From Candidatus Dojkabacteria bacterium UBA2022 (lineage in GTDB: Bacteria; Patescibacteriota; Dojkabacteria; SC72), in contig DDBW01000014.1 of the NCBI GenBank assembly GCA_002335495.1, forward strand, positions 9,831 to 73,830: 64,000 nt of DNA, written 5' to 3'. Positions 1 to 14,230 of this stretch are shown in pieces (positions within the stretch are counted from its first letter, which is position 1; every line of letters begins with the position of its first letter). A program made the position numbers and the translations under genes. The notes beneath the pieces were generated by a model. That model was not told where the DNA came from, searched no databases, and saw only the letters and a list, made by a program, of their open reading frames with translations.

Positions 1-1
1 T

Positions 2-313
2 TCTATCCAAATAAACCCTTATTTACTCAAATATCCAATTTCATATTTGGCATCAGGGTTGGTGGGAGTACCTATGATTGGAATAGCAATTAATTCAATG
101 GGAAATAACTCTAATTCGGCTCTCGAATTTCTTTCTCAATTTATGATTGGTACTAGTGGATTCTTAGCAGGCAGTTTTTCCTTACATTTATTAAGTAAAA
201 TAATAAAACCTGTGAAAAATTCAATTAAGCATACAATATACCATGAACTTGCCCATTATATTTCTAACGATTTTAAAGTAAAACGTTTTGGCTTATTTCA
301 GCTTTCTCAATAA
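2..313 (+). CDS. 3' end of a gene that starts upstream of the window; C-terminal fragment with HExxH motif (possible membrane metalloprotease)
   Basis: The frame is open from base 2 to the stop at 311-313. The translated tail contains YHELAHY (HExxH) after a hydrophobic stretch. No start codon can be defined inside the window. Confidence 0.35.
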   Translation, partial: SIQINPYLLKYPISYLASGLVGVPMIGIAINSMGNNSNSALEFLSQFMIGTSGFLAGSFSLHLLSKIIKPVKNSIKHTIYHELAHYISNDFKVKRFGLFQLSQ

Positions 314-449
314 TTATATTTGATTAAAAATTTTCTGGGTAGATTGTGGGAAGAAATAAGAAAGTCTTTAATTACTTATTATTTAGCCGTACATTATCTT
401 TAGTTTACAGATTCACCTTTTATACTTTTTACAATATAATAAAAATATT

Positions 450-1256
450 ATGGATAAATACGTAATATTTTTAATAGTCCTTGTTTCGCTCATAGTACTC
501 ACTTTTTTGTTACTAGAAACACTTGTGTTTTTTATAGTTAACGATTTATCTATCCCTACAATAACTCTCTCAAAAGATATTAAGAGAGTACTAGTAATTT
601 ACCCACATCCTGATGACGAGATATTAATTACAGGAGGTTTTATGAAAAAACACTCAAAAGATAGAGAAATTACTTGGGTGGTACTATCAAAGGGTGAACG
701 AGGGACGCCTAATGCAGTTCTTAATGAGAACCTCAAAGAAATACGGGCAGACGAGGCAAAAAGGGTTTCAGAATTACTAAAAGTTAAAAGTTTTTCACAT
801 TACGATTTTAAGGATAATGAAATGGAAACACAGGAAGAGAAACTAGAGAAGAAAGTACAACAAATCGTTAAAGATTCTAATCCCGATTTAATAATTACTT
901 ACGACACCGCAGGGCTATATGGTCATCCAGATCATATTATTACTTCTGAAATAGTTACAAAGATTGCAGAAGAAAAGAATATAAAACTCTGGTATGCAAC
1001 AAACGCCAAAAGAGTACTTGATATGGCTTCATTACCTGAGCATATGGCAAAAGACCCTAACTTCAAGGATAAAAGAAAGTATCCAAATGTTAAAGTATTT
1101 GTAGGATTAGAGGGAAGTATAGCAAAGAGTAAGGGAATAAGCATATATGAAAGTCAATTGCAGTCATTCGTATCAGCTTATCCAATAAAGTGGATACCAT
1201 TGCCTATATACAACTTACCAATGGTTTACGAATATTTTTATCAAGTTAACGAATAG
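450..1256 (+). CDS. PIG-L/LmbE family N-acetylglucosaminyl deacetylase
   Basis: N-terminal TM helix. Motifs VIYPHPDDEILITGG and GHPDHI are typical of PIG-L (GlcNAc-PI de-N-acetylase/LmbE) zinc deacetylases. Confidence 0.8.
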   Translation: MDKYVIFLIVLVSLIVLTFLLLETLVFFIVNDLSIPTITLSKDIKRVLVIYPHPDDEILITGGFMKKHSKDREITWVVLSKGERGTPNAVLNENLKEIRADEAKRVSELLKVKSFSHYDFKDNEMETQEEKLEKKVQQIVKDSNPDLIITYDTAGLYGHPDHIITSEIVTKIAEEKNIKLWYATNAKRVLDMASLPEHMAKDPNFKDKRKYPNVKVFVGLEGSIAKSKGISIYESQLQSFVSAYPIKWIPLPIYNLPMVYEYFYQVNE

Positions 1257-1553
1257 CTTATTGTATAAACTTGAAAGTATTGCAAAACCCATTATGGGGG
1301 AATGTTAGAATTTTGGGGTCGCAAAACAGGACGTTTTCGACCTTTTGATTAAAAAGATTATACCACTGGCAAAAGAGCTTAAAAAGGTACAAAAAGACTA
1401 CTATGCATTTATGGAGATTGCGGATAAATTACCCAATAGCACAATAGATTACAAACTTTAGATATTAGATCCCAGAATTTCTATGACCTATTAGAGGGTA
1501 TTGCGGAGTGAGTACTACTTGTTGTTTAATAAACTAGACTAGTTTAAGAAACT

Positions 1554-1676
1554 TTATTTCTTCTTTTTGTCACTTCTTGTCTTTCTCCAAGCTCCAGATT
1601 TAGTTCTGGATCTTGGTTGTTTTCCTCCACCTTCATCTTTGACGTGCGGAATCCTACCAGCTCTTCTATCTGCCAT
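1554..1676 (-). CDS. small (40 aa) highly basic protein, unknown function
   Basis: Hand-translated minus-strand ORF MADRRAGRIPHVKDEGGGKQPRSRTKSGAWRKTRSDKKKK. A strong SD (GGAAAGGAGGT) lies 8 nt upstream of the ATG. It is absent from the ORF track because it is under 60 aa. Confidence 0.4.
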   Translation of the reverse strand: MADRRAGRIPHVKDEGGGKQPRSRTKSGAWRKTRSDKKKK

Positions 1677-1761
1677 ATATCTAACCTCCTTTCCAACGAC
1701 TCCTCACTCCGCATTTAATTATATCCAATTGTTACGAGAATATTAAATAACTATAGAGAAC

Positions 1762-1790
1762 TTCCAAATTTCATCTTCGAAAGATATAAT
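1762..1790 (+). promoter_or_regulatory. candidate sigma70-like promoter upstream of the res-ATPase-mod-AlbA_2 operon
   Basis: TTCCAA, then a 17 nt spacer, then TATAAT ending about 28 nt upstream of the res ATG. The -35 match is weak. Confidence 0.3.
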
Positions 1791-1817
1791 AGAGAAATAT
1801 TTACCTAATGCATAAAA

Positions 1818-4466
1818 ATGAAACTTAAGTTTGAAGCTAACCTACAGTACCAGAAAGATGCAATAAACTCAGTAGTGAAGTTATTTGAAGGTGCTCCATA
1901 CATAAGACCCGAAGATAGAATCTCTCAAGAAGTCTCCCCGAACATTTTAAAGATCACACAAGAAAAAATATTTGAGAATTACAACAAAATAGTTACCGAA
2001 AGTCTCATCGATGAAGGTAAACAAGCAAAGAATAGTGACCTATTGGATTTTTCAGTTGAAATGGAAACTGGAACTGGAAAAACTTACATATATTTGAGAA
2101 CTATCCTAGAGCTATATAAAAACTATGGTTTAACAAAATTCTTAATCGTTGTACCAAGTATTGCAGTAAAAGAAGGAGTTATCAAAACTTTAGATATGAC
2201 GAAAGACCATTTCAATGAGTTATTCAACGAAAAGATCCAATACTTCGAATATGACAGTAAGAAATCTACGAGAGTAAGGCATTTCGCCTACAGTAATACA
2301 CTTCAAGTAATGGTGATCAATGTTCAAGCATTTAATGCAGATGACAACATTATCAATCAAGAAAGAGATGTAAATAACGGAGCGAAACTAATTGATTTGA
2401 TCAAAGCCATAAGACCTGTTGTGATAATGGATGAACCTCAAGAAGGAATGGATAGTAAAAATATGGAGAAGAGATTCAATCAGTTAGATCCACTATTTAA
2501 GATTAGATACTCAGCCACACATAAAAAGCCAATAAACCTAGTCTACAGACTCACTCCTTATGAAGCATACAATCAGGGATTAGTTAAAAAGATTGAAGTG
2601 TACTCAATCCACGAAGAGAATACCCAAAGCAATGTTGAGATTGAGTTTAAAGAGATTAAATATACTTCAGCTAAACCAGAAGCAAAGTTACAAGTAAACT
2701 ATAAAGTTGGAACCGATTTCAAAACTAAAGACGGTTATTTCAAAGAATTAGACAACTTGGAAGAGAAAACTAAAAATCCCGCCTACAAAGGATGGATCAT
2801 TGAAAGAATATACAAGGATCTAATGGATAACACTGAGAAAGTGAAATTCAGTAACGGAATTGAATTAACAAGAGGCTCAAAACACGGATGGGATAAAGAA
2901 TCTATCTTTAGGGAACAGATACGCTGGACTATAAAAAGACATTTCCAAAAGAAAGAACAATACAAAGATCTAGGAATTAAAGTCCTATCTCTATTCTTCA
3001 TTGATCGAGTAGCAAACTATGTAAATGCAGAGGGGATTATCAAAAAGCTTTTCATTGAACTATATAAACAAGAATACAAAGATAAGTACGGGAAAGAACC
3101 TGAGAATGTTGATCAAGTACACAATGGATACTTTGCAAAAACCAAATCAGATGAATATACCGACAATGTTAACTCAATGCAGAAAAACAAAGAGATCTAC
3201 AACCTAATTATGAAAGATAAAGAGAGATTATTATCTTTTGAAGAACCATTAGAATTTATATTCTCTCACTCCGCACTAGGTGTTGGTTGGGATAATCCCA
3301 ATGTATTCCAAATATGTACCCTAAATGAATCACATAGTGAGGCTAAAAAGAGACAAGAGATAGGTAGAGGTTTAAGAATATGTGTTGATAAAACAGGTGA
3401 AAGATATAGAGATCCTGATACAGTCACAGAAGGACAAGAAATAAACCTTCTAACCGTAATCCCAAATGAAAGCTATCACGCATTTGTAACACAATATCAA
3501 GATGAAATTATCGAAGAGACTGGAGATACAAGAGCAACTAAAGTACGAAATGCGAAAAAGGGTGCAAACAAAATTGGAATTAACAAAGATATTTTAAACA
3601 GCGATGACTTCCAGAACTTATGGAAGAAGATACAGAAGAAAACAAAATTTATGGTCTCCTTTAGAGAACAAGAGTTGGTAGATAAATGTGTAGATGAACT
3701 TAGTTCAATAGTTGTAAGGGAGCAAATTATTCAGACCCAAGCAATACAAATTAAGAGTCTAAGTGAATCACAAGACATAAACCAGAATATCCTCACAAAA
3801 GGAGAAACTTCAACAAAAGCAAAGAGTTCTGTTGCCAATATTGATCTAATTGATCAACTATCTGAACAAACTTCTTTAAGTATTAAAACTGTAATTGAGA
3901 TACTAAGCAAGATTTCAAATCAAAGTATGCTTACTAAAAATCCAGTTGTATACCTTACAGAAGCAGTTAAAAGAATTAAACGAGTACTAAATACTGAAAT
4001 GGTAAGAGTTATTAGCTATCAACCTACTAATGAGGAATTCCCAATTGAAGATTTCGAGAAGTTCGATCCTCAGACATACAACGATGTAGTACCAGCACGT
4101 AAAGGGGTCTATGACGCCGTAGAATACGATTCAGCAATCGAAAAAGACTTTGTACTAGATATAGACCAAGAAAACAAAGTAAAGGCATTTGTGAAGCTAC
4201 CAAAATGGTACAAAATTGAAACACCTATTGGTACTTACAATCCAGACTTCGCTTTAGTAATGGAGAAAAAAGATCTTGAAAAAGGTGGAGAAACAAAATA
4301 CTACTTTGTAATTGAAACAAAAGGTACAGACGATATTAACGAGCTAAAAGATGAAGAGAAAATGAAGATTCAGTGTGCTATTAAACATTTTGAAGCAATT
4401 GGCTTTGAAAAATATATGGCACCTGTAAAGAATCTAAATAGCTTTAAGAGTAAGGCAAATATTTAA
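1818..4466 (+). CDS. res: Type III restriction enzyme Res subunit (SF2 helicase plus C-terminal PD-(D/E)xK nuclease)
   Basis: Helicase motif I METGTGKTY and DEAD-like VIMDEPQ. Type III Res-like length of 882 aa. C-terminal nuclease signature NPDFALV...YYFVIETKG. Confidence 0.8.
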   Translation: MKLKFEANLQYQKDAINSVVKLFEGAPYIRPEDRISQEVSPNILKITQEKIFENYNKIVTESLIDEGKQAKNSDLLDFSVEMETGTGKTYIYLRTILELYKNYGLTKFLIVVPSIAVKEGVIKTLDMTKDHFNELFNEKIQYFEYDSKKSTRVRHFAYSNTLQVMVINVQAFNADDNIINQERDVNNGAKLIDLIKAIRPVVIMDEPQEGMDSKNMEKRFNQLDPLFKIRYSATHKKPINLVYRLTPYEAYNQGLVKKIEVYSIHEENTQSNVEIEFKEIKYTSAKPEAKLQVNYKVGTDFKTKDGYFKELDNLEEKTKNPAYKGWIIERIYKDLMDNTEKVKFSNGIELTRGSKHGWDKESIFREQIRWTIKRHFQKKEQYKDLGIKVLSLFFIDRVANYVNAEGIIKKLFIELYKQEYKDKYGKEPENVDQVHNGYFAKTKSDEYTDNVNSMQKNKEIYNLIMKDKERLLSFEEPLEFIFSHSALGVGWDNPNVFQICTLNESHSEAKKRQEIGRGLRICVDKTGERYRDPDTVTEGQEINLLTVIPNESYHAFVTQYQDEIIEETGDTRATKVRNAKKGANKIGINKDILNSDDFQNLWKKIQKKTKFMVSFREQELVDKCVDELSSIVVREQIIQTQAIQIKSLSESQDINQNILTKGETSTKAKSSVANIDLIDQLSEQTSLSIKTVIEILSKISNQSMLTKNPVVYLTEAVKRIKRVLNTEMVRVISYQPTNEEFPIEDFEKFDPQTYNDVVPARKGVYDAVEYDSAIEKDFVLDIDQENKVKAFVKLPKWYKIETPIGTYNPDFALVMEKKDLEKGGETKYYFVIETKGTDDINELKDEEKMKIQCAIKHFEAIGFEKYMAPVKNLNSFKSKANI

Positions 4467-4471
4467 AAACT

Positions 4472-5929
4472 ATGTTTATAAAAAAGGCAACAATAAAAAA
4501 TTACAGAATATTTTCCTCAAGTGAGGATTTTATTATTGATAATATAAACGTACCAGATAATTCAAATGTTGGCAGTGGATTAACAATTCTTGTTGGAGAC
4601 AACGGTTGTGGAAAATCATCCATTCTTGAAGGAATATCTTTGCCAGTTCTATCATATAAATCTGAATCCTTTTGTTTAGAAGATCTAAACGACTTAGACT
4701 CTAAATGCGAGATAAAATTGTTTGCTAATTCGAATTTTGAAGTAAAAGGGAGTCTCCCTAATAAATCCAAACCAACTTTTCAAGCACAAGGTTTTGAATT
4801 TATAGGAAATATTAGAACTCGAGACAACAAATCATATTTAACACCATTAATTGTTTCAGATCAAAAGTTTATAAGAGCAGATGGTTTAGATAAGCCAGAA
4901 GATAGCAGTCCAGATTTAAGGGTAAACGTTAACAACCCCTTTAGCGGTAATCGTTTTACTGATAATGATTATCTATATCTAGACAAGAATAGGACATTCC
5001 AAACAAGGAATGGTACTTATAATACAACAAAATTTGACAGATTAATGGACAATTTTAATTTTCAATATCTAAAGTCGGTAGAAGAAGCCGAAAAAACGGA
5101 TATAAACGAATCCGTTAGACAAACAACTATCTCAAAAGTATCTAACACATTTTTGCAAAATTCATTTGAAAAGTTTAAAGAAATCTCTGGATACGACTTA
5201 TCCTTAAATATGATTTCATCTTTAGAGCCATTTAAACATGCAAGCATTGGTGATAACAGAGATAACTTACAACAAATAAAATTGTCTGCGTTAGGTTCTG
5301 GCTATGAGATGATCTTTACCCTTTTGTACAATTTTTATTTGTCACAACAAGCAGGAAAAGATTTAATTATACTTATTGACGAGCCCGAATTGCACCTTCA
5401 TCCAAAACTACAAGAAAAATTAGTAGAGGTTTTACTAGAATTTTCAAAAACTAGTCAAATAATTATTACTTCCCATTCACCAATCCTCGTAAAACAGCTA
5501 TGTGTAAATGACAAAGTCGAAACAAAGATAATCAAACTGGGTAACGGTGTTCCAGAATTGTCGTCAATAAATGAGAAGTTATTACCATACGATTCAGCAA
5601 ACGAAATAAACCACTTAGCTTTTGACTTCCCAACGCCAGAATATCACGATGAACTATATGGGAGATTGCAGGAGTTATTATTGTGCTTTGACGAAGCTAG
5701 CATAGAAACAGCTTTAGTTAGAGATCATAGTATTAGCAAGACAAAAAGATGGCAGCGGGAAAAAAATGGCGCGGTAAGTGGAGCGGAGTATGATATAACA
5801 CTTCAATCTTTTATCAGAAATAAACTTCACCATCCAGAAAATATTACTATGCAGAGTAAAAAGTTTACGACTAATGAGTTAGAGCAATCAATCAATGAGA
5901 TGCGAGTAATAATTAAATCGCTTATTTAA
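4472..5929 (+). CDS. ABC-type (AAA_21/AAA_15-like) ATPase with a distinct C-terminal domain carrying an R-x4-H (RNKLHH) HEPN-like motif; PrrC/RloC-like architecture
   Basis: Walker A GDNGCGKSS; degenerate signature LSALGSGYE; Walker B/H-loop LIILIDEPELHLHP; ITSHSP D-loop-like segment. The C-terminal roughly 130 aa have no Toprim motifs but contain IRNKLHHPEN. A 6-nt gap follows res and an 18-nt gap precedes mod. Confidence 0.6.
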   Translation: MFIKKATIKNYRIFSSSEDFIIDNINVPDNSNVGSGLTILVGDNGCGKSSILEGISLPVLSYKSESFCLEDLNDLDSKCEIKLFANSNFEVKGSLPNKSKPTFQAQGFEFIGNIRTRDNKSYLTPLIVSDQKFIRADGLDKPEDSSPDLRVNVNNPFSGNRFTDNDYLYLDKNRTFQTRNGTYNTTKFDRLMDNFNFQYLKSVEEAEKTDINESVRQTTISKVSNTFLQNSFEKFKEISGYDLSLNMISSLEPFKHASIGDNRDNLQQIKLSALGSGYEMIFTLLYNFYLSQQAGKDLIILIDEPELHLHPKLQEKLVEVLLEFSKTSQIIITSHSPILVKQLCVNDKVETKIIKLGNGVPELSSINEKLLPYDSANEINHLAFDFPTPEYHDELYGRLQELLLCFDEASIETALVRDHSISKTKRWQREKNGAVSGAEYDITLQSFIRNKLHHPENITMQSKKFTTNELEQSINEMRVIIKSLI

Positions 5930-5946
5930 GTTTATGAGTAGTAAGA

Positions 5947-7824
5947 ATGAATAAAACATATAAACAGTCAGAAGACCTATACAAAGAGAAGGTTGAGCAA
6001 TTAAAAGCCATTTATCCTGCACTCTTTAGCGATGAGGGTAATTTAAATGAAGATGAGCTAAGAAACTTTCTAAAGCAGTTCGCTTCTACCTCTGAAGGCA
6101 AATATGAGTTTAACTGGGCAGGGAAAATGACTGCGAAAAGAAATGCTTTTACTACTTCAAGAGCAATGTTAAAACCAGACAAAGATAGAAGTATTGATTT
6201 TGATAAAACAGAAAACTTAATTATCGAAGGAGATAACTTAGAAGTATTAAAACTACTTCAGAAATCGTACCAAGGAAAAATCAAATGCATTTATATTGAT
6301 CCTCCATACAATACAGGAAACGACTTTATCTATACGGATAACTTTTCAGAAGAGAAGAAGGCATACTGGGAAAAGTCAGGTACAACACAAGATGGAGTGA
6401 AGTTAGACACAAATACAGAATCACAAGGGAGATATCATAGCAACTGGTTGAATATGATATATCCAAGATTACTACTTGCTAGAAATCTGTTAAGGGAAGA
6501 TGGTGTGATTTTTATCAGTATTAATGACTTTGAAGTTCATAATCTAAAGAAAGCAATGGATGAAATATTTGGAGAAGAAAACTTTATCGCCCAATTAGTT
6601 TGGGAGAATAAAGAAGGTGGAGGTAGTTCAGATAGCAAACTTTTTAGGATTAAACACGAATATTTGCTTTCATACACAAATAATAAAAATATCGTCAATA
6701 TCAAGGGTGAAATCAAAGGTGAAGACAATAGTTATACATATGAAGACGAATATCTATCTAAACGTGGTAAATACAAACTAATAAAGCTTAATAGCTTCAG
6801 CGTACAGTACTCTCCGTCACTTGACTACGAAATATTACTCCCAAACGGGGAAAAGGTTATGCCTAGTGAAAATGGGAAAAGAGGATGTTGGCGTTGGTCT
6901 AAAGAAAAGCTAGATTGGGGAATAAGAAATGGTTTTATTGAATTTAAAGAAAATTCAGAAGGTAAGTTATGGGTCTATACAAAGCAGTATTCTAAGGTTG
7001 ATAACGAAGACAAACCAATAATTCGAGAGTTACCCTTTAGAGGAGTAATCAGTAAATATTCCAGTACCAAGGCAACAAAACAACTCGAACAATTAATGGG
7101 GTTAAAATTATTTGATTATTCGAAGCCTTTCGAGCTAATAAAGTTTATATGTACAATATCCTCAGACAAAGACTCAATCGTTTTGGACTTTTTTGCAGGT
7201 TCAGGCACTACGGCACAAGCTGTAATGGAATTAAATAAAGAAGATCGTGGTAACAGGAAATTTATACTTGTACAAATACCAGAAAAAACAGATGAAAACA
7301 GTGAAGCTTACAAAGCAGGATATAAAAAAATATCAGATATATGTATCGAAAGAGTAAAACGAGTATCTAAGAAATTATCAGAAGAAAAAGCTACAGGAGA
7401 TCTAGGGTTTAAAGTCTTTACATTATCTCCAAGTTATTTCCCTGAAAACCTCTTTACACCAGATCCAGAGAAGACAGAAGAAGAAAATAAAAAAGCATTG
7501 GCAAAATACATAGAAGAAGCATCCACACAATTGGAATTCAAATTTGACGAGTTTGATTTAATGTATGAGGTATTACTTAAAGACGGATTTACACTAAACT
7601 TTAAAGCTGGGAAGTTATCTGAATTTCCTAAGAACAATATCTATAAAGTTACGGACGGTGAAAAACACGCTCTAGTGACCCTTGATCCCGATTTAAAGGA
7701 CGAAACCCTACAAAAGCTACAAAGTTACACTGAAGAAAGATTCATTTGTTTAGAGAGGGCTGTAGACACTACGAAGAAGTGGAACTTACAGAATATGTTT
7801 GGGAGTAATCTTTGGGTAATTTAA
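5947..7824 (+). CDS. mod: Type III restriction-modification Mod subunit (beta-class N6-adenine DNA methyltransferase)
   Basis: Motif IV DPPYNTG precedes motif I FFAGSGTT, with a target-recognition region between them. At 625 aa it is adjacent to res. Confidence 0.85.
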   Translation: MNKTYKQSEDLYKEKVEQLKAIYPALFSDEGNLNEDELRNFLKQFASTSEGKYEFNWAGKMTAKRNAFTTSRAMLKPDKDRSIDFDKTENLIIEGDNLEVLKLLQKSYQGKIKCIYIDPPYNTGNDFIYTDNFSEEKKAYWEKSGTTQDGVKLDTNTESQGRYHSNWLNMIYPRLLLARNLLREDGVIFISINDFEVHNLKKAMDEIFGEENFIAQLVWENKEGGGSSDSKLFRIKHEYLLSYTNNKNIVNIKGEIKGEDNSYTYEDEYLSKRGKYKLIKLNSFSVQYSPSLDYEILLPNGEKVMPSENGKRGCWRWSKEKLDWGIRNGFIEFKENSEGKLWVYTKQYSKVDNEDKPIIRELPFRGVISKYSSTKATKQLEQLMGLKLFDYSKPFELIKFICTISSDKDSIVLDFFAGSGTTAQAVMELNKEDRGNRKFILVQIPEKTDENSEAYKAGYKKISDICIERVKRVSKKLSEEKATGDLGFKVFTLSPSYFPENLFTPDPEKTEEENKKALAKYIEEASTQLEFKFDEFDLMYEVLLKDGFTLNFKAGKLSEFPKNNIYKVTDGEKHALVTLDPDLKDETLQKLQSYTEERFICLERAVDTTKKWNLQNMFGSNLWVI

Positions 7825-7828
7825 TAGT

Positions 7829-9085
7829 ATGGAAATATTAAGAAGAGATATTAAAAATATATCTTTTGACGAAATAGTTGAATTTTGTAAACTAGGGTAT
7901 CCTGAGGGATCCCAATTAGACTATAAGAAGAAATTTAGTGAAAACTTCTGGAGTAATGAACTTCAAAAAGATGTTGCATCCTTTGCAAATATGCAGGGAG
8001 GGATAATAATAGTTGGAGTAAAAGAGGATAAAACAACGGGAAAACCAAAAGAATGGGAGGGGATAGAAATTAATGCAGAAGAAATTGATAGGATCGACAG
8101 AATAGTGGCAAATATGACCCCATTGCCACACGCGGAATCTCACTTAATTCCTAACGAAGAGAATACTAAATGTTTTTTAGTAATACGTATTCTTGAGGGT
8201 TCGAATAAGCCTTATTATGCTAATAATGATCCTATTGAATGGATAAGAACGGGAAAAGTAAAAACACCGATTGAACCTGCTTCGCCTCAATACAAAAAAT
8301 ATCTATTTGACGATAAGAATAAAGCTTCAGAACAAAGGAAATTTCTACTTGAATATGCAAACAAGATATTTAAAGGGCATACTTTTAATAGATTTGAAGA
8401 AATGCTTTTAAATGGGGAACTGGATCACTCAGTCATAGGCAGTGTACATCCAGATTTTGATAAAACCAAAGCGAGACTACAAATAGCAATCCTCCCTTAC
8501 AATCCAAATAAGACATTGATAACACCAAGCTCATTAAAAGATAAAATATACAATATTCGGATCTCAGAAGGGATTACAGATTTCCCAATAGTAAATTGGG
8601 CTTTCCAGACAACACCGAAAGGAATATCAACGTTTGTACATCTAGACAACGATCAAACAATTAATATGCAAATTTTTGGAGAAGGTTTAATATTTTTTTC
8701 GTATGACATATGTCAAGAAAAAGAGACTGAAAAGAATATCTGGCAAGGTTTTAGTCTTCCGGTAATATTGAAATACACTCATTTATCACTTAAATTGGCT
8801 GAAAGTTTGTACAGAAATCTAGGATATCAAGGAGAATTGTTAAGCAAAATAGAGATAGCGAATGTTATTGGACTTAATGCTTGTAGTGATTTACATAGCT
8901 CTCAATACAAGAAAGCCCTTCTCTATAGCTATAATTGGGATATATTGTTTAATACATACTCAATATCAAATGAAGATGAGTACTGGAAAACGTTTGCCGA
9001 ATTTGGTAAATCCGTTTATGAAAGCTTTGATTTTAGCTGGGTCACTCCGGATAAAATAAAAGAATATACTATGTCTAGTTGTTAG
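7829..9085 (+). CDS. AlbA_2 (Schlafen-core-like putative DNA/RNA-binding) domain protein with an uncharacterised C-terminal domain
   Basis: N-terminal roughly 130 aa match the AlbA_2 pattern (ISFDEIVEFCKLGYPEGSQLDYKKKF...ASFANMQGGIIIVGVKED...EEIDRIDRIV). It starts 5 nt after the mod stop, so it sits in the same operon. Confidence 0.65.
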   Translation: MEILRRDIKNISFDEIVEFCKLGYPEGSQLDYKKKFSENFWSNELQKDVASFANMQGGIIIVGVKEDKTTGKPKEWEGIEINAEEIDRIDRIVANMTPLPHAESHLIPNEENTKCFLVIRILEGSNKPYYANNDPIEWIRTGKVKTPIEPASPQYKKYLFDDKNKASEQRKFLLEYANKIFKGHTFNRFEEMLLNGELDHSVIGSVHPDFDKTKARLQIAILPYNPNKTLITPSSLKDKIYNIRISEGITDFPIVNWAFQTTPKGISTFVHLDNDQTINMQIFGEGLIFFSYDICQEKETEKNIWQGFSLPVILKYTHLSLKLAESLYRNLGYQGELLSKIEIANVIGLNACSDLHSSQYKKALLYSYNWDILFNTYSISNEDEYWKTFAEFGKSVYESFDFSWVTPDKIKEYTMSSC

Positions 9086-9121
9086 GCTTTATATTCTATT
9101 AAATAGTAATATAATTTAGCT

Positions 9122-9403
9122 ATGCATAAGACGGAGGAATCAGTAACAAAACAACAAAAGCCAAAACTTTCTGAAATAGCTAAAAAGAAGATGGAAGAAA
9201 TCTTCATAAAACAGAAAAAAGATCCCAAAGAGGATCCTGCTAAAATATATCTTCAGCTATTAAACCAGTACGAACCTCCTGTTGACGAAGACGATGAAGA
9301 TGACGAGAATACTGATAACTCATTAGAAGACTATACTTTCTTTAATAACGACGGAACTAAGTTCAAAGAGCTACCTAAAAATGAGAGGGTTAAGACAAAA
9401 TAA
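9122..9403 (+). CDS. small hypothetical protein with a strongly acidic C-terminal segment (DEDDEDDEN)
   Basis: ORF with a Lys-rich N-terminus and an Asp/Glu run. No recognisable motif. Confidence 0.35.
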   Translation: MHKTEESVTKQQKPKLSEIAKKKMEEIFIKQKKDPKEDPAKIYLQLLNQYEPPVDEDDEDDENTDNSLEDYTFFNNDGTKFKELPKNERVKTK

Positions 9404-9716
9404 AGATCAGATTGTCGAACTCCTCCACGATTACATCGTATTAGGTTACAGTATCAATAAATCTTGTCAGTACATAGGAATTCCGCACACAACAGTTCAT
9501 ACTTGGATAAACAACGATCCAGAGGTTCGTATGAAAATTAACTCTTGGAAAAACATTGTAAATCTTGAAGCAAGAAAAAGAATTGTCGAAAAAATAGTAA
9601 ACGGAGATATCAAAGCAAGTATGTGGTGGCTAGATAAGTTTGATTATATTGAAAACTCAAATGAAGAGAAAAGTAATCAATTAAGCATCGAAATAAATGG
9701 CAGAAAAGTATATTAA
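9381..9716 (+). CDS. small HTH DNA-binding protein, terminase-small-subunit-like (alternatively an excisionase/RDF-like protein)
   Basis: HTH-like segment YSINKSCQYIGIPHTTVHTWINNDPEV followed by the ASMWWLDKFDY motif, reminiscent of phage small terminase/HTH proteins. It overlaps both the upstream ORF and the recombinase start. Confidence 0.35.
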   Translation: MRGLRQNKDQIVELLHDYIVLGYSINKSCQYIGIPHTTVHTWINNDPEVRMKINSWKNIVNLEARKRIVEKIVNGDIKASMWWLDKFDYIENSNEEKSNQLSIEINGRKVY

Positions 9717-11385
9717 CGAAATCGCAGAAGAAGAGTTAAGAATCTATTGCGAAGAAGTTAGAAAGATCAATTTGCGAAGGCGTGGAATCTATATTCCCCC
9801 AGAGGAGAAACTGAGATATGTACTATATGCAAGAAGATCAACAAAATCTTCTCCCAAGGAAAGATTAGATAAAGCCACGTCAAGAGAAGAAAGAAAAAAA
9901 CTAGATAAACAAGAAAGGTCTATTCCAGATCAAATCAGTGAATGTTTGAAATTAGCACAAAAAGAAGAGCTACAAGTTGTTTTGATAGTGCAAGAAGAAG
10001 GATCAGCATATGCAAAGGATAATCGAAAGAAGTTTGATAAGATGATCAATGATATAAAAATTGGTAAATACGATGGGATAATTGCTTATGCACCAGATAG
10101 ATTAGCAAGAAATATGAAAGAAGCTGGTGAAATGCTTGATATGGTAGAAGAAGGAGTTATCAAAGATCTTAAATTTCCGACATTCCATTTTGAACGAGAA
10201 ACAAATTCAATGCTCTCGCTTGGACTAAACTTCTTACTCGCAGAAAACTATTCAACAAACCTTTCATATCACACAAAAAAGGCAAATGAAGGGATTATCA
10301 AAGAAGGAAAGGGAATAAGAAATTCAAAACTTGGATACATACTAAATAAAGATCGTTACTTTAGACCAGATCCAGATAATTTTGAAAAAGTAAAAACATT
10401 ATTCAATTTAGGATTAGAAGGGAGAACTTTAATTGATATTGTAGACATAAGTAAAAGACTTGCAATAACTTTCAATGGAAAACTACGAGTATTTACGACA
10501 CAAAATCTATCTAGTCTCTTACGGGATCCATTTTATGCAGGAAAACATCTTAATGGAACCCAAATAATTGACCTAAAAGCAATCGATAAAGACTTCACAC
10601 CTATGATTACTGCTCTAGATTTTACAACCATTAGAAGGCACTACGACAAATTAAGTAGTCGAAGAAAATCGAAAACCAAAGAGCCACTGTTCTTTACTGG
10701 ACGCGTAATTTGTAACAATTGTGCGAAGTTATGCTCAGCAGGAAAAAGTACAAGCGGAAGTGGACATAAATATCTGTGGGTTAATTGTACAAACAAGGAA
10801 TGCAAGCACAAAGTAAGAATTAGGGGAACAGATCTTCTTAAATATTCTGGAAAAATACTGACCAATCTTTCAAAGAGAATAACCAAGGAAGATTTCGATA
10901 AATTTGTATCACAAGTGAAGAAAGAACAGCCTGAAAGACTTGATCGTTTACAATACAAACATATTTCACTTAGTCAGGAAATCAATGAAAAGAAGGAAGA
11001 AATCAGTGCGAAGGAAAAGCAAAATATGCGAAAGGACTTAAGCCTAGAAACAAAAAAATTGATTAATATTGAAATTAGTAAGCTTTATTCTGAGTTGAAC
11101 AAATTAAACTCGGAAAGAGAGGAAATAAAGAATGACCTTCTTATATTGAAGGTAAACTTAGGAACAGAATTAGAGTCTTTAGAAAAGTTTTCGACCTTTT
11201 TAAAAGAGGCCGACAATACAATAAAAACCAGTCATAATAAGTACAAGGTAGACAAAATCATAAAAATGGCATTTTCGACCTATGTCGTAGAGGGCAAAGA
11301 TATTGTAGCATATAAACTTAAATCACCACTTGAGGGGTACAAAAATCTCGATAGTTTCTTGAATGGGGTGGAAGATGGGACTTGA
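9697..11385 (+). CDS. large serine recombinase (integrase-type)
   Basis: Catalytic-region motifs YARRST and DGIIAYAPDRLARN. A Cys-rich zinc-ribbon segment CNNCAKLC...CTNKECKHK. A long C-terminal coiled coil. The last 22 nt overlap the 3' end of tRNA-His. Confidence 0.7.
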   Translation: MAEKYINEIAEEELRIYCEEVRKINLRRRGIYIPPEEKLRYVLYARRSTKSSPKERLDKATSREERKKLDKQERSIPDQISECLKLAQKEELQVVLIVQEEGSAYAKDNRKKFDKMINDIKIGKYDGIIAYAPDRLARNMKEAGEMLDMVEEGVIKDLKFPTFHFERETNSMLSLGLNFLLAENYSTNLSYHTKKANEGIIKEGKGIRNSKLGYILNKDRYFRPDPDNFEKVKTLFNLGLEGRTLIDIVDISKRLAITFNGKLRVFTTQNLSSLLRDPFYAGKHLNGTQIIDLKAIDKDFTPMITALDFTTIRRHYDKLSSRRKSKTKEPLFFTGRVICNNCAKLCSAGKSTSGSGHKYLWVNCTNKECKHKVRIRGTDLLKYSGKILTNLSKRITKEDFDKFVSQVKKEQPERLDRLQYKHISLSQEINEKKEEISAKEKQNMRKDLSLETKKLINIEISKLYSELNKLNSEREEIKNDLLILKVNLGTELESLEKFSTFLKEADNTIKTSHNKYKVDKIIKMAFSTYVVEGKDIVAYKLKSPLEGYKNLDSFLNGVEDGT

Positions 11386-11441
11386 ACCCACAACCCTCGG
11401 TTCCACAAACCGATGCTCTAACCAATTGAGCTACTCCCACC
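11364..11441 (-). tRNA. tRNA-His (anticodon GTG), with encoded G-1 and 3' CCA
   Basis: Hand-folded cloverleaf: G-1 opposite C73, acceptor GTGGGAG/CTTCCAC, D-stem GCTC/GAGC, anticodon loop TTGTGGA, T-loop TTCAAGT, CCA encoded. Confidence 0.8.
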
Positions 11442-11562: not shown

Positions 11563-12069
11563 ATGGGTAAAACAGCAACAATCCTTTTTATAACAGGTGC
11601 AATGATAGCATCTGGATGCTCAGCAGCAGAAGCACCCGTTGTATACGAGACCCCAACCCGAGTACCAAACCTAGAGCCAGCAGAACTCCTAATCCCTAAA
11701 ACAATGGTAATAAATCATAATGACAAGGCACTTGAATTCTATTTACCAGGGATTGCATACAGATCATTCATACCAGAAGGAGGCATACTAGAAAAGCTAT
11801 TCACTTCCGCTGATGAAGGAGCAGTTAGCCTTGATCAAGCATTTGAAACTCACCCAACAGGATACACTCTTTCACCATACCACCTCCTCAGAGTACTAAG
11901 ACCAGATGGAATCGAAGAAGACTACACCACCACCGAAGGATCATTTGCCATAACCTTTGCAGATGAAAACCTAGACCCCGTGGTGTACATCATTGAAGTA
12001 GCCAGGGATAGAACCGCAGTTGAAGTAGGGCGGGTAGTAAACCCAGCTAACGACCTAGTCCTTCCTTAA
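11563..12069 (+). CDS. putative lipoprotein
   Basis: Signal peptide with lipobox IASGCS. No other recognisable domain. Confidence 0.5.
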   Translation: MGKTATILFITGAMIASGCSAAEAPVVYETPTRVPNLEPAELLIPKTMVINHNDKALEFYLPGIAYRSFIPEGGILEKLFTSADEGAVSLDQAFETHPTGYTLSPYHLLRVLRPDGIEEDYTTTEGSFAITFADENLDPVVYIIEVARDRTAVEVGRVVNPANDLVLP

Positions 12070-12122
12070 CCCAATATCAACAATCTCATTAAAAAACCAT
12101 CCTTAGATGGTATAATTACCAT

Positions 12123-12596
12123 ATGAAAATAATAACAGTAGAACAAGATGAAAAAACTCTAAGAAAGGTATCAAAAGATATCCCAATAGAAGAAATAAAC
12201 ACACCCCAATTCCATAAGTTCCTTGAAGACATGAAAGAAACCGCCTCCAACGCACCAATGCCCAAGGGATGGGAACCAGCAGGCCTTGCCGCCATACAAG
12301 TAGGGGAGGATAAGAAAGTATTCATAGCAATAGACATAGACACAGGAGAATTCAAAGAATACATTAACCCAAAGATTAAGGTAATAGGAGATAAAGAAAG
12401 CATAGACCTAGAAGGATGCCTCAGCATACCCAACACCACAGGATACGTAAAAAGACCAAAGAAAGTTAAAATAACATACCTCGACCGCTTCGGAGTATCC
12501 CACACTGAAAGACTCTCAGGCTTTAACGCCAAAATAGTACAACACGAAAACGACCACCTCCTTGGCATACTATTTACAGACAAACTAGAAAAGTAA
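12123..12596 (+). CDS. def: peptide deformylase
   Basis: Conserved PDF motifs GLAAIQVG, EGCLSIP and HENDHLLG. Confidence 0.85.
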   Translation: MKIITVEQDEKTLRKVSKDIPIEEINTPQFHKFLEDMKETASNAPMPKGWEPAGLAAIQVGEDKKVFIAIDIDTGEFKEYINPKIKVIGDKESIDLEGCLSIPNTTGYVKRPKKVKITYLDRFGVSHTERLSGFNAKIVQHENDHLLGILFTDKLEK

Positions 12597-14230
12597 TGGC
12601 AATAAACCATAACTTAACAGACAAAGAAACCCGCAAAGCCAAAATCGCCCAAATCACATACGCAACCATAGCCGTTGCCCTCACAATCTTCGCCATATAC
12701 TCCAACATAGAAAAACCAGAAGAGAAAAAGGATAACAAAACTCAACCTAAAACAACAATCTGCACCATAAACACCCTAGAACCAACATACACCCAAACCC
12801 TGGAAAAATACGCCACAGAGAATAACGCAGAAATTCTCGGCAACAACCCAACATGCGACATAACCATAGCCAGAAACGTAAAGGATATAAACACCTACAA
12901 CCGCCTCACCACCAAGACCTACGCCCTTGTAGCCCGCTATGACACAACCCTAGAGAGCATCACAACCCAGGAACTCATGGCCCTGCTAACAACCCAAAGT
13001 AATAATCAGAAAACAATAGTCTGGGATACTCAAACAGATCAATTCATAAGATCAACCTTTGAAAGTATCGGAGTAGGGCAGAGAGTAGTACAAAAAGACG
13101 AAATCAAGCAAGAAATCCTCAAATCCACAAACACCCTTGCCATAATCCCCTTTGAAGAGATAACCCTCGCATACAAAGTAATCTCCATAGATAACCTCAA
13201 CCCCATCTCCAAAGACTTCAACACCCTTAGATACCCCCTCATAGACAGATACTGGATCAAAGGAGATGAAAACACCACCAAGAAAGTATCAGAATACATA
13301 AAAACAACCATACCAGAAACCAACATCAACCCCTCACAAATAACAACCCTCACCCTAACAGGATCATCCGCCGTAGGAAGTGGCATCCAACAATCCCTAT
13401 ACACGACCAAAGGAATAGACTACATAAACCCAACCATACAAAACCTCATCAAAGAAAGTGACATAGCACAGATCAACAACGAAGCCTCCCTAGCCACCCC
13501 ATGCGTGCAAACCGAAAACACAACTAAATATTGCACCACCGAAAACAACCTCAAACTAATCAAAGACCTCGGTTTTGACGTAGTAGGGGTGAACGGAAAC
13601 CACATCATGGATATATCATACGAAAGATACCAAGAAACCCTCCAATGGTATGCCAAAAATAAACTCGAATACTACGCCGGAGGAACTAACTCAGAAGACG
13701 CATGGACCCCAAGGGTAGTAGAAGCCAATAAACTCAAATTCGCCTTCATCGGCTTTAACTACCTATACCCCTTCAGCTACTACGCCACCAAAAACACCGC
13801 AGGCAGTGCCAACGTAAACATGGAAATAATGAAAACAACCATAGAAAAAGCCAAGAAACTCGCTGACATAGTAGTTGTAGACATGAGCTGGGGATATGAG
13901 TACGACACCGACCTTCTATCGTACCAAACCGAATACGCTAATGCCGCAGTACAGTATGGTGCCAACATAGTAATCGGAACCAACAGCAGAATATATCAAC
14001 AAACCCAAATAACAGATAAATCAATGATCTTCTACGGCCTAGGATCTTTCCTCCCTCACACATACAAAGACTCCCAGTCCGCCATCTACACCCTCACATA
14101 CTATAAAGATAAACCCATTAACCTAAAAATAACCCCAATTAAACTCAATAACCAAACCGTTACAACTCTCGAAGGATCAGAACTAGATTCAACCCTCCAG
14201 AAAGTGTATAGTAATATAAAGATAAACTAA
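12596..14230 (+). CDS. CapA/PGA_cap family metallophosphatase-like protein (poly-gamma-glutamate capsule synthesis family) with an N-terminal membrane anchor
   Basis: N-terminal TM. C-terminal half carries a PGA_cap-like pattern (VGVNGNHIMD, FIGFNY, IVVVDMSWGYEY, ANIVIGTNSRIYQ, FYGLGSF). Confidence 0.65.
   Translation: MAINHNLTDKETRKAKIAQITYATIAVALTIFAIYSNIEKPEEKKDNKTQPKTTICTINTLEPTYTQTLEKYATENNAEILGNNPTCDITIARNVKDINTYNRLTTKTYALVARYDTTLESITTQELMALLTTQSNNQKTIVWDTQTDQFIRSTFESIGVGQRVVQKDEIKQEILKSTNTLAIIPFEEITLAYKVISIDNLNPISKDFNTLRYPLIDRYWIKGDENTTKKVSEYIKTTIPETNINPSQITTLTLTGSSAVGSGIQQSLYTTKGIDYINPTIQNLIKESDIAQINNEASLATPCVQTENTTKYCTTENNLKLIKDLGFDVVGVNGNHIMDISYERYQETLQWYAKNKLEYYAGGTNSEDAWTPRVVEANKLKFAFIGFNYLYPFSYYATKNTAGSANVNMEIMKTTIEKAKKLADIVVVDMSWGYEYDTDLLSYQTEYANAAVQYGANIVIGTNSRIYQQTQITDKSMIFYGLGSFLPHTYKDSQSAIYTLTYYKDKPINLKITPIKLNNQTVTTLEGSELDSTLQKVYSNIKIN

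Follow-up and report, generated by a model that had tools for sequence, protein, structure and literature searches.

A Type III restriction-modification island from a Dojkabacteria genome with a probable ATPase-HEPN protein and a Schlafen protein in its variable slots

Restriction-modification (R-M) operons can harbour additional defence genes, the archetype of which is prrC (bioRxiv 10.1101/2024.01.29.577857; reviewed in PMC12707154). PrrC of the E. coli EcoprrI locus (Type Ic hsd) combines an ABC-type NTPase with a C-terminal HEPN-type RNase, and its gene is embedded between those of the R-M system. The protein is kept silent by this Type Ic system and, once active, cuts tRNA-Lys. Here we describe a related arrangement in a 64,000-nucleotide stretch (the window) of the Candidatus Dojkabacteria bacterium UBA2022 genome (contig DDBW01000014.1, positions 9,831 to 73,830). 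It contains the genes for the restriction (Res) and modification (Mod) subunits of a Type III R-M system, an ABC-type ATPase with a probable HEPN tail located between them, and a Schlafen/AlbA_2 protein, followed by a large serine recombinase that abuts a tRNA-His gene. The unit belongs to a family of tRNA-His-associated islands with two cargo slots, and its contents may constitute a layered defence.

Several components of this arrangement have precedents. Fusions of ABC ATPases and HEPN domains within R-M operons were described as multi-pronged defence by Anantharaman et al. in 2013, whose ABC-HEPN groups include RloC, APECO1_4465 and ERFG_01251 (PMC3710099). In 2024, defence genes embedded in multi-gene immune systems were surveyed under the principle of “guilt by embedding” (bioRxiv 10.1101/2024.01.29.577857); Hma, BREX, DISARM and Type I R-M were the systems examined, Type III res-mod pairs lying outside the survey. 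PARIS, which cleaves tRNA, is known to guard R-M systems. Bacterial Schlafens, finally, were reported in 2026 to be phage-triggered tRNases frequently linked to R-M (PMC13056530, PMC13462974), more than 50 % of the defence-linked ones being tied to R-M or other nuclease systems (PMC13462974).

A first-pass annotation of the window had regarded the architecture as undescribed. This overstated its novelty, the principle being laid down in PMC3710099, bioRxiv 10.1101/2024.01.29.577857, PMC13056530 and PMC13462974. What appears to be specific here is the embedding in a Type III res-mod pair, the inverted gene order, the two cargo slots, the tRNA-His island and the repeated pairing of ATPase-HEPN with Schlafen genes; a widespread ATPase-HEPN family lacking a dedicated Pfam or PADLOC model likewise appears specific to the present work. 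The locus does not change current concepts but illustrates the published idea of abortive infection as a backup, and it extends the paradigm of restriction plus an embedded abortive-infection RNase, known from PrrC and Type Ic, to Type III and to a genome of the candidate phyla radiation (CPR; Dojkabacteria). Gene structure, domains, conservation of catalytic motifs, folds and synteny statistics are direct results; RNase activity, RNA targets, triggers, transcription as an operon and any cross-talk with Res/Mod are inferred.

The Type III core and its variable slots

Four open reading frames (ORFs) on the + strand (1818-4466, 4472-5929, 5947-7824 and 7829-9085) are separated by gaps of 5, 17 and 4 nt and are probably co-transcribed (Table 1). 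Profile searches confirmed the domain calls of the first-pass annotation for all four proteins, with the HEPN tail of the second being only probable. Judged by domains and catalytic motifs, Res and Mod are an intact Type III system. Res matches Pfam ResIII (1.7e-15) and RE_endonuc (5e-36) and PADLOC REase_III (8e-211), and contains helicase motif I (TGTGKT at residue 84), DEPQ (205) and PD...ExK (809-835). Mod matches Pfam N6_N4_Mtase (8.4e-37) and PADLOC MTase_III (3.8e-177), and its DPPY motif (IYIDPPYN) precedes FxGxG (FFAGSGTT), the order found in the beta class. A simple-sequence repeat tract of the kind used for phase variation was searched for in mod and not found.

Type III enzymes hemimethylate an asymmetric site, and their ATP-dependent cleavage needs two sites in inverse orientation. 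The canonical Type III systems EcoP15I and EcoP1I share the superfamily 2 (SF2) helicase and PD-ExK nuclease of Res and the beta-class N6-adenine methyltransferase of Mod. In these systems, however, mod precedes res, whereas in the clade of the window res precedes mod throughout, with a variable slot between the two genes and a serine recombinase after mod. The inverted order had thus been correctly recognised in the first-pass annotation, but it is a property of the whole Res clade and not of this locus: the window reads res-X-mod, and relatives with 64-91 % Res identity read res-(X)-mod instead of showing the typical mod-res adjacency.

Four such relatives, with Res identities of 91, 83, 72 and 64 % (loci L109-L112), all have the res-then-mod order, but they differ in which genes, if any, lie between the two and behind them. 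In L109, the 91 % relative, no gene lies between res and mod; a 389-aa ORF considered as an insert was rejected, since BLAST showed that Mod is split here and that the ORF is its N-terminal half. The slot of L110 (4961-5329) and L111 (11668-12033) is occupied by a conserved protein of about 121 aa (58 % mutual identity), whose N-terminus contains a hydrophobic helix and whose charged tail is probably a coiled coil, and for which neither a Pfam match nor a significant PADLOC match was found. L112 (64 % Res identity) carries at 11672-13149 a 346-aa protein corresponding to the PADLOC candidate PDC-M59A (4e-85), itself a candidate of the guilt-by-embedding survey, followed by a 146-aa Fic protein. 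Directly after mod, L110 and L112 have a recombinase or, in L112, a 74-aa remnant of one, which overlaps a tRNA-His gene.

Since L109-L112 maintain the res-mod order with varying contents and the tRNA-His junction recurs in L110 and L112, the unit is a tRNA-His-associated island family with the layout res / slot 1 / mod / slot 2 / recombinase. In the window, slot 1 holds the ATPase-HEPN gene and slot 2 the Schlafen gene. Of the two modules that had been called embedded, only the former lies on the same strand between core genes, as the guilt-by-embedding principle demands; the AlbA_2 gene comes after mod and ahead of the island recombinase. Conservation of the four-gene synteny, which had been proposed as a check, extends to this Dojkabacteria lineage and to short fragments of an 81 % relative, and the exact order was found nowhere else. 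The window itself corresponds to an 87-kb contig from bioreactor sludge, the proteins of which are placed in Candidatus Dojkabacteria by NCBI. The islands provide a natural series of near-isogenic Type III loci differing only in the contents of two slots, a series well suited to finding out whether embedded modules monitor the R-M enzyme around them or simply travel along.

Table 1. Features of the island and its surroundings (window coordinates)
Feature	Position	Strand	Basis or remark
Candidate -10 box TATAAT	1785..1790	+	Read from sequence; 28 nt 5' of res start codon; weak -35 TTCCAA
Res, Type III restriction subunit, 882 aa	1818..4466	+	SF2 helicase and C-terminal PD-ExK endonuclease
ABC-type ATPase module, AAA_21/AAA_15, OLD/PtuA/AriA/GajA-like	4472..5524	+	Pfam, motifs
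Probable HEPN RNase domain, C-terminal	5525..5929	+	aa 352-485 of ATPase protein, motif IRNKLHHPEN
Mod, Type III modification subunit, 625 aa	5947..7824	+	Beta-class N6-adenine methyltransferase
Schlafen/AlbA_2 nuclease domain	7829..8278	+	Catalytic motif E26-x4-D31-Y-K33
Schlafen C-terminal domain, aa 151-418	8279..9085	+	AdoMetDC-like/TBP-like fold; putative sensor
Two overlapping small ORFs, 93 and 111 aa	9122..9716	+	Between Schlafen gene and recombinase
Large serine recombinase/integrase	9697..11385	+	Pfam Resolvase 1.4e-13 and Recombinase; PHROGs integrase 3.4e-39
tRNA-His (GTG)	11364..11440	-	ARAGORN; overlaps recombinase 3' end by ~22 nt

Two putative RNases and their genomic contexts

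The slot 1 protein matches Pfam AAA_21 (2.8e-23) and AAA_15 (6.2e-23), and with Walker A (GDNGCGKS at 42) and Walker B (IILIDE at 299) it has the motifs of an ABC ATPase. Its nearest solved relatives by profile search are OLD (6p74), PtuA, AriA and GajA, and its top PADLOC matches are NsnB, AriA, PtuA and GajA. The closest ATPase modules are thus those of PARIS (AriA/AriB), OLD, Gabija (GajA) and Septu/retron (PtuA), which follow the same sensor-effector logic. Their effectors, however, are TOPRIM or HNH nucleases, often on a second protein, whereas the putative effector of the window is a fused HEPN-like domain; a TOPRIM domain was looked for in the ATPase protein and adjacent genes and none was found.

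An alignment of 38 homologues of many phyla (about 50 % identical) displays the motif phi-R-N-x-I-H-H, in which the residues of the Rx4-6H signature (R449-NKLH-H454 in the window) are strictly maintained, R449, H453 and H454 being invariant in 38 of 38 sequences. A second invariant block, S-A-N-E-x-N ... E-Y-H-x-E-L-Y, lies upstream, and both subfamily B and the enterobacterial relatives share the HEPN motif. On the other hand, the isolated tail (aa 345-485) gave no Pfam match and no PADLOC match at E<=10, and neither Foldseek nor a profile search against the PDB returned a HEPN structure. We consider the tail to be probably, though not demonstrably, a HEPN domain.

The protein resembles PrrC in its general design and in the embedding of its gene between core R-M genes. 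Pfam AAA_13 (PF13166), the NTPase model of the PrrC family, had no match at E<=0.01 in the ATPase and, because the isolated tail has no PADLOC match either, the protein does not group by sequence with the PrrC/RloC family. Its ATPase is OLD/PtuA/AriA-like, its host system is Type III and the family to which it belongs is often stand-alone.

This family is found in very diverse surroundings. Exact-protein look-ups placed members in Type I loci, where they separate hsdS from hsdR (L017, L020), behind the mod and res genes of a Type III system (L022) and by themselves in an island (L019); the position of prrC (hsdM-hsdS-X-hsdR) is held by family members in L017, L020, L023, L026 and L067. A contig scan with a full-length ATPase alignment picked up generic Walker motifs and returned only 2 close relatives. 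A metagenome scan with patterns specific for the tail domain proved highly selective: 521 of 600 candidates were relatives, giving 80 loci which, together with six earlier family loci, make 86 and collapse to 56 groups at 85 % identity. Because phmmer with the seeds only left many neighbouring genes unlabelled, Pfam was run in bulk on 89 same-strand neighbours and the seed set was enlarged.

R-M components dominate among the 89 neighbours (ResIII 11, HSDR_N 9, Methylase_S 8, N6_Mtase 4, N6_N4_Mtase 4, C5 methylase 2, and the McrBC-like DUF2357/PDDEXK_7 2), accompanied by restriction-linked passengers (RhuM 6, Bro-N 3, Fic 2, AlbA_2 with HATPase_c_4 3). With the expanded seed set, an R-M gene in the same operon was found at 17 of 37 dereplicated loci having at least 3 kb of flank. 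If shorter contigs are included, 21 dereplicated loci have a same-operon R-M gene, 11 of them Type I and 4 Type III-like, the rest being McrBC-like, II/IIG-like or mixed. As an internal control, the density of R-M-labelled ORFs is 22 % up to a distance of 1.5 kb from the ATPase gene and then decreases outward to 13 %, 4 %, 3 % and 0 %. About half of the dereplicated contexts are stand-alone, with no R-M. This widespread and uncharacterised family is a strong marker of R-M neighbourhoods.

In two enterobacterial contexts, the same HEPN module (TLQSFIRNHIHHPEN...) is joined to a divergent ABC ATPase. On the Klebsiella plasmid NZ_MN310379.1 the gene is located between two ISNCY transposases (L113, 7001-8464), and in a prophage of E. 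coli SCU-316 it directly follows the prophage integrase (L114, 4998-6446). The enterobacterial module reads FIRNHIHHPEN...ELxxSIxxM, and the RefSeq name of the protein is “ATP-dependent nuclease”. The E. coli gene occurs in 10 of 5,426 complete genomes; APEC O1 does not belong to these carriers, and at the DNA level the gene is absent from it.

The slot 2 protein scores 55 bits with SLFN_AlbA_2 (cut-off 25), and its motif E26-GSQL-D31-Y-K33, conserved in 36 relatives, fits the Ex4(E/D)xK consensus of PMC13056530. The AlbA_2 call is borne out, as is the nuclease nature predicted for the core. RorSlfn5, EcoSlfn7 and Cash (PMC13056530, PMC13462974) are built alike, with an Slfn/AlbA_2 Ex4(E/D)xK nuclease and a variable sensor domain encoded beside R-M genes; the window Schlafen, a putative nuclease, differs in its AdoMetDC/TBP-like C-terminal domain, for which Pfam has no model. 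Its family is small and divergent (3 close and about 60 distant matches), and the nearest non-trivial homologue (L103, 46 % identity) resides in a mobile-element context with no R-M genes adjacent.

In three loci (L032, L039 and L049), an ATPase-HEPN gene is directly followed by an AlbA_2 gene with HATPase_c_4. The order is ModIII-ResIII-ATPase-Schlafen-SIR2 in L032 and ModIII-ResIII-ATPase-Schlafen/HTH in L039 (gaps of 1, 12 and -8 nt; HTH, helix-turn-helix), while L049 comprises only ATPase-Schlafen at a contig edge. L032 and L049 represent one lineage; compared with L032, the ATPase of L039 is 57 % identical and its Schlafen only about 20 %, and the window has a different ATPase subfamily (about 30-37 % identity) and a different Schlafen architecture. 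Sequence comparison therefore indicates at least three independent associations of ATPase-HEPN with unrelated Schlafens (the window, L032/L049 and L039), and in two of the three pairings the start and stop codons overlap by 4-8 nt. Since both gene types are frequent passengers of R-M loci, the pairing could nonetheless be coincidental. With the SIR2_2-domain protein encoded behind the Schlafen gene in L032 (11863-13086), a single operon would contain three putative abortive effectors.

How restriction and the RNases may be linked

The first-pass annotation interpreted the locus as DNA restriction backed up by RNA-targeting abortive modules. This is still the most reasonable reading, but the PrrC-style dependence that accompanied it is not supported by the distribution of the family. 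In the version that we favour, and to which we give an even chance, the region from about 1.8 to 11.4 kb would be an integrative island, whose large serine recombinase abuts the tRNA-His gene, carrying a layered defence. Res/Mod would cut unmodified incoming DNA, while the ATPase-HEPN and Schlafen proteins would be self-contained sensor-effector devices, each kept inactive by an ATPase or sensor domain of its own, which upon infection cues might cleave tRNA or other RNA and so stop translation. Their link to the R-M system would be mainly genetic, through co-transcription and co-mobilisation, and would not require physical masking by Res/Mod. Genetic coupling is favoured over masking because the ATPase-HEPN family accompanies four R-M types that differ in mechanism, and frequently no R-M system, and because within this one R-M clade the slot is either empty or filled by unrelated genes.

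Masking is the essence of the foremost alternative, a guard of the PrrC type, according to which the ATPase-HEPN protein and possibly the Schlafen would be silenced by binding of Res/Mod and unleashed by a phage anti-restriction factor. PrrC and PARIS are precedents for such R-M guardians (PMC12707154, PMC3710099). The placement of the ATPase gene inside the res-mod pair, 5 nt from res and 17 nt from mod, the family members in the position of prrC and the strong enrichment of R-M genes around the family all speak for it. A single specific mask is, however, hard to fit to a family that accompanies Type I, Type III, McrBC-like or II/IIG systems or none; moreover, the 91 %-identical Res relative lacks an insert, other relatives have unrelated ones, and there is no sequence relation to PrrC. 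We consider this guard a serious alternative, though a less probable one than genetic coupling.

A more elaborate variant takes the ATPase-HEPN and Schlafen proteins together as a co-selected two-RNase guard module for R-M, Type III especially, as suggested by the three independent pairings, two with overlaps of 4-8 nt. For example, one protein may sense restriction failure and the pair may hit different tRNAs, leaving translation beyond rescue by tRNA repair or tRNA supply from the phage; such guards would then have a dedicated docking site in the slot that this clade keeps between res and mod. We regard this variant as unlikely.

Could the RNases instead serve the island itself, maintaining it by post-segregational killing and playing no part in phage defence? 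They are encoded on an integrative island close to its recombinase, relatives reside on a plasmid and in a prophage, and HEPN domains are common among toxins of toxin-antitoxin systems (PMC3710099). Yet a cognate antitoxin gene is not apparent, both proteins have regulatory or sensor domains of their own, as is typical for defence effectors, and bacterial Schlafens have measured anti-phage activity (PMC13056530), all of which makes addiction as the main function quite improbable.

That the two proteins are non-toxic R-M accessory factors, the ATPase aiding DNA handling and the AlbA_2 protein acting as a DNA-binding regulator of the operon, is suggested by older database names (“ATP-binding protein”, “RecG-related”, “transcriptional regulator”) and by the HTH domains of many AlbA_2 relatives, but is very hard to believe, as both nuclease domains have conserved catalytic residues, Pfam detects no HTH domain in the window Schlafen, Res is itself equipped with a motor and a nuclease, and the R-M clade functions without either gene in L109.

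Recombinase, tRNA-His and island boundaries

The tRNA-His gene is likely to be the integration site of the island. The same recombinase/tRNA-His junction is present in two divergent relatives (L110, 8427-8503; L112, 15370-15445); its recurrence, with the 74-aa recombinase remnant in L112, suggests a family of tRNA-His-targeting islands with Type III R-M. Att-like direct repeats flanking the island were searched for with only a marginal 14-nt match, and no recombinase remnant was found upstream; because serine integrases leave a minimal core only, the repeat search is uninformative. The match is an exact repeat, GTTTTCGACCTTTT, present at 1333-1346 (5' of res) and at 11187-11200 (3' part of the recombinase gene), with an E value of 0.002 in a small search space.

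In L110, one 1038-aa ORF (5332-8448) consists of a full Type III Mod (residues 1-605) and a serine recombinase that is 31 % identical to residues 125-562 of the window recombinase; it may be a genuine fusion or may result from an error in assembly or reading frame. The fragment L108, containing the 81 % Schlafen relative, retains both small ORFs that precede the recombinase gene in the window, and at 1821-2149 the second of these is directly followed by sequence matching recombinase residues 517-546, pointing to a variant that has lost most of the recombinase. The 111-aa ORF has a weak likeness to small HTH DNA-binding (terminase-small-like) proteins (PHROGs phrog_4102, 3e-07); the 93-aa ORF has no PHROGs match.

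As for transcription, the single promoter postulated ahead of the operon remains a candidate: the TATAAT box is indeed there, but its -35 region is weak and its score is below the threshold of a consensus promoter scan. The scan, which also marked a promoter-like site at 9088-9115, carries no weight, because shuffled sequences gave more sites than the real one.

Upstream, a small lysine/arginine-rich ORF of about 56 aa (MADRRAGRIPHVKDEGGGKQPRSRTKSG...) on the - strand (1544-1714) is divergent from res; it is annotated as a gene on a matching contig (L104) and has no Pfam family on record. The G+C content is about 0.33 over 1-11400, a PIG-L gene upstream of the island included, and rises to 0.41-0.43 downstream. 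The region of higher G+C beyond about 11400 contains housekeeping genes such as those for peptide deformylase and PGA_cap.

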